From positions 1,506-65,505 of IMG/VR virus record IMGVR_UViG_2756170264_000002: DNA of 64,000 nucleotides; one strand, given 5' to 3'. This document shows positions 34,197-41,976 of this stretch, one piece after another. Under the pieces are notes generated by a model. That model was not told the origin of the DNA. It saw nothing but the letters and a program-made list of their open reading frames with translations, and made no database searches. Both the position numbers and the translations under genes were made by a program. The first letter of the stretch is position 1, and every line of letters starts with the position of its first letter. Origin of the DNA: a virus.

Positions 34197-34439
34197 TTAA
34201 TTGAAATATTTAAAGAGTTCTTCTCTTTCTTTTTCATCTTCCTCGTATACAATTAAATCCTTCGGTTGTAAATCCAAAATAGCGCAAATTCTGTTTATAG
34301 TTTCAAGTGATATATTTGTATCTTCATTTTTAATTTTCTTTAAAGTATCTTGGCTTAGTATCTTTGTTCTTTTTGCAATGTACATATTTATCCCTGCACG
34401 TTCCAAAGCATCAGCGACATTTATTTTATATTTTATCAT
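34197..34439 (-). CDS. Cro/C1-type HTH regulator (HTH_26-like)
   Basis: LSQDTLKKIKNE...ISLETINRICAILDLQPKDLI. Confidence 0.85.
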   Translation of the reverse strand: MIKYKINVADALERAGINMYIAKRTKILSQDTLKKIKNEDTNISLETINRICAILDLQPKDLIVYEEDEKEREELFKYFN

Positions 34440-34507
34440 TGTTCAAGCCTCCTATTGATTTCATCTAAATACAACATACTACACATATAAAAACAAGTCA
34501 ATAAAAT

Positions 34508-34557
34508 ATCACTAAAAAAAGTTATAAATAGTATTGACAATCACTTTTTAAAGTGAT
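34508..34557. promoter_or_regulatory. Two ATCACT-N6-AGT(G/T)AT operators in divergent promoter region
   Basis: ATCACTAAAAAAAGTTAT (34508-34525) and ATCACTTTTTAAAGTGAT (34540-34557) next to TTGACA 34534-34539. Confidence 0.7.
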
Positions 34558-34598
34558 AATATAAGTATAACAAATAAAGAAATCGGAGGTAAGTAGAA

Positions 34599-34847
34599 AT
34601 GAAAAAGACAAAGAATATAAAAGTTGAATGGTGCGAGAATTTTATAAAATCAACATTTGGAAAAATTCCAAAGTTCGCAAAAGGAATTGAAACAAATTGT
34701 TTCTTTGAAATGGCTGAAAAATCGGGTCTTTACATAAAAGGAACTTACGGCAGTTCAATGTCGAAAGCACTTGAAAATATTGCAGAGGTAAAAATAGTTC
34801 AAGATGATAACGGGAATTATATGTATTCCACGTTCTACATGAAATAG
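34599..34847 (+). CDS. Hypothetical protein
   Basis: GGAGGT RBS. Confidence 0.7.
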   Translation: MKKTKNIKVEWCENFIKSTFGKIPKFAKGIETNCFFEMAEKSGLYIKGTYGSSMSKALENIAEVKIVQDDNGNYMYSTFYMK

Positions 34848-34853
34848 AGAAGA

Positions 34854-34916
34854 GTCGAAACACTCTTATGAGCGTCAGCCGAGGACTAGCCGCCCGGCTC
34901 TGATGAAGATAGGCTA
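34854..34916 (+). ncRNA. Type II hammerhead ribozyme with pseudoknot
   Basis: GTC-GAAA-C[aCTCttatGAGc]G-TC cleavage triplet (C34876); stem I AGCCG/CGGCT; CTGATGA 34900-34906; stem II GAT/GTC; loop I TAGCC pairs with 3' GGCTA. Confidence 0.85.
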
Positions 34917-35018
34917 AATAATAAAAGCTGATCACACCGCTACCAACGAACATGACCAGCACCCAAATAAGAAAGGCAAGGCTATTATATAATAGATAGC
35001 TGAAAAAGGTAAAGGATT

Positions 35019-35234
35019 ATGGAAAATAAAGTATATGATGATTTTGAGGGAACTAAGAAAGAGCTACACAAAATTGTAGACTACATAGCTTTTGACTGTA
35101 GCGTTGGTATTTGGGGAAAAGTTGATTTTGCAGTTGATAAAAAAGAATTTACTAAGATATTATGTGAGGCATTAACAAGAAATGTGGTTGTAAGCGAAAT
35201 CGTTGATATGATGAATCATGTTTACAATGAATAA
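35019..35234 (+). CDS. Hypothetical protein
   Basis: AAGGA RBS; terminator-like hairpin follows. Confidence 0.65.
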   Translation: MENKVYDDFEGTKKELHKIVDYIAFDCSVGIWGKVDFAVDKKEFTKILCEALTRNVVVSEIVDMMNHVYNE

Positions 35235-35399: not shown

Positions 35400-35861
35400 A
35401 TGAGAAGAATTTATAAGGGATATACAGATATTAAAGAAGGACTATTTGAAGAAGGAATGCATTTTACAACAGATTATTTTGATACAATAGAAGAACTGAT
35501 TGAGGATGATGATAGGGTTGGGATATTTTTTGAAAGTCAAAATAAACTATTAAATGATGATACAGTTTTAGATCTGGAAAAAATTAAATTATTATCTGAT
35601 GAAAAGTTGCAGCAACTTCTTGATGAATACAATAAAGATAACGAATTGGGGAGGTATCATAAACTAACTAATATTGACAATACATGTTTACTTCTAACCA
35701 AAAGCGCTGAAGAAATTGAACGATATTTAAAAAGTTGCGGAATAAAAATTGAAGGAACAGGTTTTGATTTTACTATGAGAAGTGATAGAGTCTATTCACT
35801 TACGGATGAAGAAGATTTTAAGGTAAGGCAATACATAGAGAAGATGATAAAAAATGAATAA
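35400..35861 (+). CDS. Hypothetical acidic protein
   Basis: GGAAGG RBS; terminator-like hairpin follows. Confidence 0.7.
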   Translation: MRRIYKGYTDIKEGLFEEGMHFTTDYFDTIEELIEDDDRVGIFFESQNKLLNDDTVLDLEKIKLLSDEKLQQLLDEYNKDNELGRYHKLTNIDNTCLLLTKSAEEIERYLKSCGIKIEGTGFDFTMRSDRVYSLTDEEDFKVRQYIEKMIKNE

Positions 35862-36063
35862 TACTTAAAATTATCGTATTCATAATTGGATGCGGTATTT
35901 TTTTAGTTGTTCACCATATTCACTCATGAAAATAATTAATAAATATGGTGATATATAATTAGTAATTCTTATTAAATGAATAAAATAAATATTTTAAAAT
36001 ATAAATAAATTTATTGTAAATGGCAAGTATATACTTTATAATAAAATAGAGCGAGGTGATATC

Positions 36064-36274: not shown

Positions 36275-37204
36275 ATGGCAAATCCACAAAAAGAAAATGG
36301 ATATACTCCGGTTGCAAATGAGCTGCTAGAGCATGTTTATAAGTTGAAACTGAATGGTACGCAGTTTAAAATTATTTTAGCATTATGGCGGTATACATAC
36401 GGATTCAGCAGAAAAGAAGCCGAGATATCAGATTCTTTTATAGCTAAAGCAGTCAGTTCTACCAGACAGGTGATTAACAAAGAAATTAACAACTTAATAG
36501 ATTGTAACATGATTCAAGTAATAAGAGCATCAACTTTTACTAGTCCACGTACTTTGAAATTTAATAAAAATTACAATGAGTGGAGTGTAGATGTATTAGA
36601 CGCATGCAAAACGATAACAGGCATGCAATTAGATGCATGTACAGGCACGCAATCACATGCATGTAGTAGCATGCAATTAGATGCATGTACAGGCACGCAA
36701 TCACATGCACAAGATAAACAAGATATAAAACAAGATATAAAACAAAATATATATTGTGTTTTTGCAGGAAAGGATGATGAAAAAATGGAAATGAAGCGAT
36801 ACAATCCAAATCACGAAGATGATTATGATAAGACTCAAATTGGATGGTGGAAATTTTATCGTTACTTTGAGGATGAAGAGCTGAACGATTTATTTATAAA
36901 GTTGCTTGATATGACAGAGGAACAGAGCAACGGTTTTGTTGACGGAATTGGTGAAGTGTATGCTATGATTGAAGCTAATACAGTAAATGAAAAATACGAC
37001 CTTGGAGAAGTTTTGGATATGTCTGACGAGGAATTTAGAAAATTAGATGTTGAAAAGCAAGTAGCATTTAATAATATGCCAGTAATTGAAGATAATACAG
37101 TCGAACTAAAGAATATTCTTAGAGAGGGTATTTATAAAAAAGATATTAAGATAATTAATAAATATCTGGGGATTGACAATCTTGTAAGTACTGTTGTATT
37201 ATAA
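36275..37204 (+). CDS. Second replication initiator, lambda O-like N-terminal domain
   Basis: MANPQKENGYTPVANELLE...QFKIILALWRYTYGFSRK...ISDSFIAK; internal DNA repeats. Confidence 0.8.
   Translation: MANPQKENGYTPVANELLEHVYKLKLNGTQFKIILALWRYTYGFSRKEAEISDSFIAKAVSSTRQVINKEINNLIDCNMIQVIRASTFTSPRTLKFNKNYNEWSVDVLDACKTITGMQLDACTGTQSHACSSMQLDACTGTQSHAQDKQDIKQDIKQNIYCVFAGKDDEKMEMKRYNPNHEDDYDKTQIGWWKFYRYFEDEELNDLFIKLLDMTEEQSNGFVDGIGEVYAMIEANTVNEKYDLGEVLDMSDEEFRKLDVEKQVAFNNMPVIEDNTVELKNILREGIYKKDIKIINKYLGIDNLVSTVVL
36621..36745. repeat. Iteron-like repeats inside O-like gene
   Basis: 41-bp perfect direct repeat at 36621-36661 and 36669-36709 (48-bp period, 24-bp sub-period) followed by AACAAGATATAA-type 12-mers. 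Confidence 0.85.
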
Positions 37205-41391: not shown

Positions 41392-41976
41392 ATGAAAATA
41401 TTTTTTGATACAGAATTTACAGGATTACATAAAAATACTACGCTGATTAGTATTGGATTGATTTCGGAAGATAGAAGACAGTTCTACGCAGAATTAATTG
41501 ATTACAATGAAAATCATTGCGATACATGGATAAAAGAAAATGTGATTAAGCATTTGAGAAAGACTGACTGGAGGGAAAAAAGAGGGACATATATTCCAAA
41601 TTATCATATTGGTGCAAAACAGGAAATTGGGAAATCATTAGATAATTGGTTAGTCCAGTTTGAAGAGGTAGAGTTAGTGTCTGATGTTTGCCATTACGAT
41701 ATGGTTTTGCTAATAGATTTATTTGCAACAGCTTTCAATATGCCAAATAATGTTGCTCATGCTTGCTATGATATTAATCAAGATATCGCAAGAAAGTATG
41801 GAATTTCCATGAAAGAAGCTTTTGATAAGTCAAGAGAGGATATTTTGTATCAGCATTACAAAGAAAATAAAGTACAAGGTGATAAGCACAATGCTTTATA
41901 TGACGCAAAGGTTATTCGTGAATTGTATCAGATTCTCAACGATGTAGATTTTGAGAAAATACATAGACTGGGGTGA
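41392..41976 (+). CDS. DEDD-type 3'-5' exo(ribo)nuclease
   Basis: KIFFDTEFTG, LISIGL, YD, KHNALYDA. Confidence 0.85.
   Translation: MKIFFDTEFTGLHKNTTLISIGLISEDRRQFYAELIDYNENHCDTWIKENVIKHLRKTDWREKRGTYIPNYHIGAKQEIGKSLDNWLVQFEEVELVSDVCHYDMVLLIDLFATAFNMPNNVAHACYDINQDIARKYGISMKEAFDKSREDILYQHYKENKVQGDKHNALYDAKVIRELYQILNDVDFEKIHRLG

Follow-up and report, generated by a model that had tools for sequence, protein, structure and literature searches.

What self-cleaving ribozymes are for in bacteria and phages has been debated since 2011. An earlier note, made from the letters alone, placed a type II hammerhead with a pseudoknot between two phage genes in the 64,000-nt stretch of DNA analysed here (the window). 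It stated that type II hammerheads occur in Firmicute and phage genomes and that their roles are largely unknown, which agrees with PMC3088659 and PMC6765202. The host of this prophage is a Lachnospiraceae bacterium, and its RNase J is 94% identical to the RNase J of Candidatus Galacturonibacter soehngenii. The locus raises three questions: whether the element is a hammerhead by descent, whether this particular copy cuts, and what a cut at this place would do to the phage RNA.

Results

Identity and architecture of the hammerhead

The Rfam type II model (RF02276, Hammerhead_II), which the earlier note had named as a check, matched the site end to end (model positions 1-66 of 66) with 37.8 bits. 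The gathering score of this model is 37, so the match lies above it by a marginal 0.8 bit. The E-value was 4.4e-4 for the 64 kb window and 3.1e-5 when the operon was searched alone, and this was the sole match over the threshold both in the window and in the 4.86 Mb host genome. As shown in Table 1, every element that had been claimed for the site was present in its place on the + strand, including the 7-nt gap between the stop codon of the upstream gene (34845-34847) and the start of the motif. Three features had been absent from that account, namely the A34862.C34873 mismatch, the extra A34907, and a competing hairpin formed by 34850-34855 and 34862-34867.

The site contains the complete catalytic core (C3-U4-G5-A6-N7-G8-A9, G12-A13-A14 and the U16.1-H17 site) plus the extra A34907. 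It also has the type II permutation, with stems I and III closed by loops and stem II open. The core-closing pairs A15.1-U16.1 (A34860-U34875) and G10.1-C11.1 (G34908-C34856) were invariant in 21 of 21 aligned sequences. We searched for further ribozymes with Rfam at E <= 1 in the window and at E <= 10 in the operon, and with a relaxed scan for types I, II and III, and none was found.

Table 1. Positions of the ribozyme elements and of the surrounding operon features in the window.
Feature	Positions	Strand	Basis or remark
Cro/C1-type HTH repressor gene, 80 aa, divergent from the ribozyme operon	34197..34439	-	Pfam HTH_26, E 7.4e-11; PHROG transcriptional repressor families
Sigma-70-like early promoter, TTGACA-17-TAATAT, TG-extended	34534..34562	+	consensus scan; predicted function
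orf82, first gene of the operon	34599..34847	+	15 homologues at 57-79% identity
Competing hairpin, loop CGAAAC	34850..34867	+	MFE fold of 34800-35020
Whole type II hammerhead ribozyme	34853..34918	+	RF02276, 37.8 bits
Stem II, 5' strand GUC	34854..34856	+	partner 34908-34910; 3 bp (G34854.U34910, U34855-A34909, C34856-G34908); C-G to U-A compensatory relative to other members
Core GAAA (G12 A13 A14 A15.1)	34857..34860	+	sequence and Rfam match
Stem III hairpin, 6 positions, loop UUAU	34860..34875	+	alignment and energies; pairs A34860-U34875, C34861-G34874, C34863-G34872, U34864-A34871, C34865-G34870; A34862.C34873 mismatched
GUC triplet, predicted scissile bond C34876/A34877	34874..34876	+	sequence and Rfam match
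Stem I hairpin, 7 bp, A34882 bulged, 8-nt loop	34877..34899	+	Rfam match and alignment; 34877-34881 with 34895-34899, 34883-34884 with 34893-34894
Pseudoknot, loop I strand UAGCC	34887..34891	+	partner 34912-34916; 5 bp
Core CUGAUGA (C3-A9)	34900..34906	+	sequence and Rfam match; G5 is G34902
Extra nucleotide A between A9 and G10.1	34907	+	U in 20 of 20 aligned relatives
Stem II, 3' strand GAU	34908..34910	+	alignment
Pseudoknot, 3'-tail strand GGCUA	34912..34916	+	alignment
orf71, second gene, 142 nt 3' of the predicted cut	35019..35234	+	ORF list
orf153, third gene, orphan	35400..35861	+	ORF list
Intrinsic-terminator-like hairpin and T run	35872..35897	+	consensus scan only

The relaxed scan over all three hammerhead topologies found this site alone in the window. 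The same loose core-plus-stems scan gave about 0.85 matches per window of shuffled sequence; taken alone, the motif is therefore not significant. The folding energy of the isolated motif was no better than that of shuffles (z -0.28), which is usual for hammerheads and is neutral evidence. Together with an Rfam score barely over the threshold, these are the observations that speak for an intergenic sequence resembling the motif merely by chance, a reading that is decided by the relatives described below.

Relatives and covariation of the subfamily

A blastn search against phage records returned one match, in Dulem virus 39, and it spanned the ribozyme exactly (83% identity over 60 nt). The homologous element in Dulem virus 39 scored 53.7 bits with RF02276, and two additional type II hammerheads lie within 2.3 kb, around a Cro/C1-type gene. 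At the nucleotide level, the window copy was about 82-87% identical, over 49-73 nt, to several hammerheads with higher scores from unrelated phage contigs. The close relatives scored 49-54 bits, and the spacing of their stems, loops and pseudoknot was identical to that of the window copy. Relatives found by pattern scan came from IMG/VR contigs, from metagenome-assembled genomes of Lachnospiraceae, Eubacterium and Roseburia, and from metagenome contigs, several of them labelled human gut. A further 8 variants were found independently, in loci retrieved via a neighbouring protein. The extra nucleotide between A9 and G10.1 occurs throughout the subfamily. The element is sporadic: of 150 other host-family genomes searched under strict filters, a single one had an RF02276 match. 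These sequence comparisons indicate that the window copy belongs to a subfamily carried by phages of gut Clostridia.

We then evaluated the proposed structure, including the pseudoknot, on an alignment (A4) of 21 distinct sequences, the window copy and 20 relatives. In this alignment, 98.4% of the 441 pair cells were paired, and compensatory changes on both sides were observed at 8 of the 21 pairs (one in stem II, two in stem III, two in stem I and three of the five in the pseudoknot). The covariation score was reached by none of 500 shuffles. When the partners were slid by 1-3 columns as a control, pairing fell to 23-42%. For part of the set, the search pattern had prescribed the 3' strand of stem I; the 8 sequences retrieved via the neighbouring protein are free of this bias. 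The RF02276 match and the covarying 21-sequence alignment thus bear out the claim of a type II hammerhead with a pseudoknot between phage genes. They also stand against the chance reading, as do the identity to higher-scoring hammerheads in unrelated contigs and the identical architecture and spacing; that reading is effectively refuted, and we give it next to no probability. It is nearly certain, judging from these comparisons, that 34853-34918 is a member by descent of the family of pseudoknot-stabilised type II hammerheads.

Usually, the relatives fit closely into the gap from a stop codon to the following ribosome-binding site, and their flanking genes vary, in agreement with what Perreault et al. 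2011 (PMC3088659) described. Linkage of the ribozyme to one particular flanking gene was considered and rejected, as the neighbours differ among relatives and the homologies to either side meet at the stop codon. In the alignments of relatives, conservation vanishes immediately 3' of the pseudoknot tail, and the 100-nt spacer between the ribozyme and orf71 had no family match in Rfam. The idea that the hammerhead is the front end of a larger conserved RNA was rejected on these two grounds.

Irregular copies were also seen. Locus L040 (1076-1142) carries a subfamily copy with the core GAAC instead of GAAA, and at a contig end, L103 (about 2430-2446) shows a hammerhead-like start with UAAAC; both are possibly dead copies or sequencing errors. 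In L005 (7547-7639), stem I and CUGAUGA are present without GAAA, stem III or the pseudoknot tail. This half hammerhead is flanked by two copies of a 21-nt, hairpin-forming direct repeat and may be a remnant or a rearrangement.

Position in the early operon

The ribozyme is on the gene (mRNA) strand, downstream of a promoter that faces away from a divergent repressor gene (Table 1). A perfect 8+8 palindrome at 34540-34557, between the promoter hexamers, is a likely operator, and a partial second copy of it was observed at 34502-34525. Short stretches of the intergenic region between repressor and early promoter (34476-34585) matched many other genomes of the host family at 73-93% identity, and the region looks like a widely shared switch. 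The order downstream of the promoter is orf82, the ribozyme, the 100-nt spacer, orf71, orf153 and the terminator-like hairpin, which probably ends a three-gene early transcript. A scan for promoters and terminators between the ribozyme and the flanking ORFs gave no convincing one. The simplest reading is therefore a single early transcript of three genes that would be silent in the lysogen, and we infer that the ribozyme is transcribed in this rightward operon from the repressor-controlled promoter.

The three genes are poorly characterised by homology. No Pfam or PHROG family matched orf82 or orf71, and orf153 had no homologue but itself among 5.8 billion protein clusters. The AlphaFold model of orf82 (pLDDT 90.7) has three helices and a beta hairpin, and its PDB matches were weak (E of at least 0.3) and mostly to winged-helix DNA- or RNA-binding domains; on this model, orf82 could be a Cro-like early regulator of the phage group. 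An antisense ORF at 34642-34962 had no family match and was taken as spurious.

Other prophage genes in the window include a DnaD/O-like replication initiator (36275-37204), the small and large terminase subunits and a portal protein. Within the replication-initiator gene, a long hairpin at 36623-36707 gave weak matches to microRNA precursors on both strands and is probably an inverted repeat of the origin. A phage gene at 41392-41976 (+) encodes a 3'-5' exoribonuclease-like DEDD domain (Pfam Rv2179c-like, E 3.7e-9; RNase_T, E 5e-5).

Ribozymes at other orf82 loci

Homologues of orf82 were surveyed in 110 loci (345 kb), which represent 69 distinct contexts. At the DNA level, homology of the window to other orf82 loci stops at the stop codon of orf82, and homology to other hammerhead loci starts there. 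Because both homologies switch at this codon, the hammerhead is a separate module at a mosaic junction. Among the 110 loci, 31 hammerhead sites were in gene orientation and 2 in the opposite one. In the distinct contexts, 21 hammerhead cleavage sites were found, from -1315 to +870 relative to the orf82 stop, and many orf82 homologues were without any ribozyme.

The cleavage site was within 60 nt of the orf82 stop in 5 of the 69 contexts, and these involve three unrelated ribozymes. We considered whether the 3' end of orf82 is a hot spot for ribozymes. About 2 sites would be expected at any one junction, on the rough assumption of about 11 junctions per locus, and the 5 of 21 sites observed, with three independent ribozymes among them, are not significant; the hot spot was rejected.

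In L092, in L099/L100 and in the chromosome of Lacrimispora xylanisolvens (L184), the core of a type I hammerhead overlaps or abuts the stop codon of the orf82 homologue. These hammerheads are at L092:2744-2798 (+), L099:2744-2798 (also in L100) and L184, about 1738-1792. The UGA stop codon in L092 is part of the core CUGAAGA, and the core CUGACGA directly follows a TAA stop in L099 and L184. With RF00163, the L099 type I hammerhead scored 20 bits (E 1.2), and L092 gave no match at E <= 1. In L098, an unrelated type II hammerhead lies 10 nt past the stop of the orf82 homologue. Another type I hammerhead occurs one small gene further downstream in L089 and L093. It represents a second phage type I family (L089, about 2928-2995; L093:3078-3134; L199; L148/L150/L153/L157/L163), which also has an extra U after CUGAUGA. 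Two of these, those of L089 and L093, were scanned and had no Rfam match at E <= 1. Phage type I forms of this kind seem to be poorly detected by public models.

Twister-P1-like RNAs were found at L092:3368-3427 and L099:3263-3324 (+), with 56.1 and 53.7 bits (E about 1e-10), scores that are below the twister-P1 gathering score of 67.2. They lie between small early-operon genes, about 460-570 nt 3' of the type I hammerhead. Taken together, the loci support the view that co-oriented self-cleaving ribozymes, interchangeable in class, are abundant in the early operons of this phage group. Since the hammerheads of related operons, of type I or type II, are unrelated, and some operons have a twister in addition, it can be argued that self-cleavage as such is what has been kept. 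The same pattern has already been reported for bacterial hammerhead and twister ribozymes (PMC3088659; PMC6765202).

Folding of the window copy

Thermodynamically, the window copy is the weakest member of its subfamily. Three substitutions set it apart from its closest relatives, those of the L060 type: A for G at 34862, U for C at 34910, and A for U at 34907. The first of these produces the A.C mismatch, which is the only unpaired cell at that stem III pair in the 21 sequences. The hammerhead secondary structure was -15.3 kcal/mol here and -21 to -27 kcal/mol in relatives, and the stem III hairpin was -3.1 to -3.8 kcal/mol here compared with -7.4 to -12.0 kcal/mol in 13 relatives.

The competing hairpin is a perfect 6-bp helix of -5.0 kcal/mol that ties up the 5' strands of stems II and III. 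Both it and the mismatch are private to the window copy, and in none of the relatives is a competitor stronger than the element's own stem III. When 9 nt of upstream flank was included, the inactive fold reached -14.9 kcal/mol and the hammerhead -12.8 kcal/mol, an advantage of about 2 kcal/mol in which the pseudoknot and tertiary contacts are uncounted. A second copy of the A34862 variant was not found in the viral and genome collections, so there is no sign of selection maintaining this version. With a weakened stem III and a competing upstream hairpin, cleavage is expected to be slower and less complete than in relatives, and the energetics suggest reduced activity.

With the weakest energetics in its subfamily, the window copy may cleave slowly or not at all. 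It could then be a decaying relic, descended from an active type II hammerhead, with no useful cleavage rate and carried as a functionless passenger at a phage mosaic junction. Each difference from the L060 type weakens a helix or swaps the fast U10 for A10, and the fold is the weakest of the subfamily, with a stem III less stable than the competing hairpin. The variant was seen once, the GAAC core of L040 implies that decay does happen in this subfamily, and many orf82 homologues carry no ribozyme. However, the catalytic core is complete, the A15.1-U16.1 and G10.1-C11.1 pairs and the pseudoknot of 5 bp are preserved, no spacing is altered, and the C-G to U-A change in stem II is compensatory rather than disruptive. 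An A.C mismatch between two and three pairs in a closed hairpin need not abolish folding, and A10 is tolerated in a natural viroid hammerhead (PMC3705267). We consider the relic doubtful on balance, while rating it above the other alternatives. Judged from its sequence, the window copy is favoured only slightly as an active ribozyme, and it is probably an attenuated, unannotated one.

The competing hairpin also allows a translation-gated ribozyme. The 5' arm of the hairpin lies 3-8 nt past the orf82 stop codon, and a terminating ribosome would consequently melt it and let the weakened stem III form. The hairpin would form first during transcription and lock the inactive fold, so that cleavage would take place only on translated messages. 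If this were true, the cut between orf82 and orf71 would depend on translation; we think it very unlikely.

Discussion

Predicted consequences of cleavage for the early transcript

In this study, we found that the intergenic element of this prophage is a member of an established ribozyme family; its sequence, its family membership, the covariation and its position in the operon are established here. Taken jointly, the evidence is best explained, and with moderate confidence, by a true hammerhead of a phage subfamily that lies in a repressor-controlled early operon and cuts the transcript at C34876/A34877 into RNAs that decay and are translated independently. Cutting a polycistronic early RNA between two genes, the role suggested in the earlier note, is the standard hypothesis for such elements. 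The gene-strand position, the lack of a convincing promoter or terminator at the borders of the ribozyme and the 31:2 strand bias at orf82 loci fit it. Processing of long phage transcripts has been proposed as a role of hammerheads (Perreault et al. 2011, PMC3088659), and both in vitro and in vivo cleavage is on record for type II hammerheads in phage-like contexts in other bacteria (PMC3088659; PMC8782182).

According to this proposal, transcription would start from the 34534-34562 promoter, and the folded ribozyme would cut its own backbone between C34876 and A34877. The self-cleavage and all of its consequences for RNA stability are predictions. The upstream product would be an orf82 mRNA with the stem III hairpin and a 2',3'-cyclic phosphate at its 3' end, 29 nt past the stop codon. 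The downstream product would be an orf71-orf153 mRNA with a 5'-OH on A34877, which belongs to the first pair of the 7-bp GC-rich stem I hairpin, and with a leader of 142 nt ahead of orf71. The two halves would then decay and be translated independently of each other.

The fate of the downstream half would depend on its 5' end. 5'-terminal stem-loops in Bacillus mRNAs should hinder 5' exonuclease. Stem I, at the 5' terminus of the downstream RNA, is expected to impede RNase J, the enzyme that otherwise breaks down ribozyme products with a 5'-OH in Firmicutes. The host genome has two RNase J paralogues and one RtcB ligase gene. An opposite outcome is a glmS-like down-regulation, in which the exposed 5'-OH would be degraded by RNase J and the levels of orf71 and orf153 would be lowered relative to orf82. 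There is a Firmicute precedent: RNase J1 takes the 5'-OH products of the glmS ribozyme as substrates (PMC3328962). The two RNase J genes of the host would be compatible with such a pathway, and the type I hammerhead at the same junction in related operons leaves a single-stranded 5'-OH on the downstream RNA. In the type II element, however, the 5'-OH nucleotide A34877 is paired within the 7-bp GC-rich hairpin, which should hinder a 5' exonuclease, and we regard down-regulation as unlikely. Since a type II hammerhead would leave the downstream message with a paired rather than a single-stranded 5' end, we favour its insulation or stabilisation over its destruction.

The locus gives a natural comparison, and no answer, in the debate about ribozyme function. 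At the repressor-controlled switch, orf82 is often the first gene, and it is followed by a type II hammerhead (the window, L098), by a type I hammerhead (L092, L099, L184), by a hammerhead one gene further on, or by nothing. This allelic series, one member of which is in a named isolate, would be suited to asking whether cleavage alters the relative expression of early phage genes. The value of the window copy lies mainly in being part of this natural series on the purpose of phage ribozymes.

Comparison with known systems

The window copy resembles the type II hammerheads of RF02276 (PMC3088659) in its core, in its closed stems I and III with a short and open stem II, and in a pseudoknot of at least 4 bp between loop I and the 3' tail. 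It is likewise sited between small prophage genes whose identities are inconstant. It differs from them by the extra nucleotide between A9 and G10.1, which the whole subfamily has and which Rfam models as an insertion, and the window copy adds the stem III A.C mismatch and a score at the threshold level.

Three type II hammerheads of Desulfovibrio vulgaris (Olzog et al. 2021, PMC8782182) share the topology and the phage-like neighbourhoods, and one of them is beside an HTH gene. Their activity was verified in vivo and in vitro in a host of a different phylum, whereas the window copy is known from sequence alone. In the neighbourhoods shared by hammerhead and twister ribozymes (PMC6765202), the arrangement is like that of the related early operons, which have the same first gene, a type I hammerhead and a downstream twister-P1-like RNA; the window, in contrast, has one ribozyme only. 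The glmS/RNase J1 pathway is comparable with respect to the Firmicute mRNA, the predicted 5'-OH downstream fragment and the RNase J of the host. Unlike glmS, the window copy belongs to another ribozyme class, has no known ligand control, and has its predicted 5'-OH end base-paired.

The (+) hammerhead of the viroid CChMVd also has an extra A between A9 and G10.1 (PMC3705267, PMC1636495), but it belongs to a circular RNA replicon rather than to a phage mRNA and is without the pseudoknot. According to the summaries of De la Pena and Flores (2001) in PMC3705267 and PMC1636495, a U at position 10 speeds cleavage 3-4 fold and an A slows it moderately. The extra nucleotide at position 10 is thus a subfamily trait with a viroid precedent, and the window copy is an ordinary addition to an established family.
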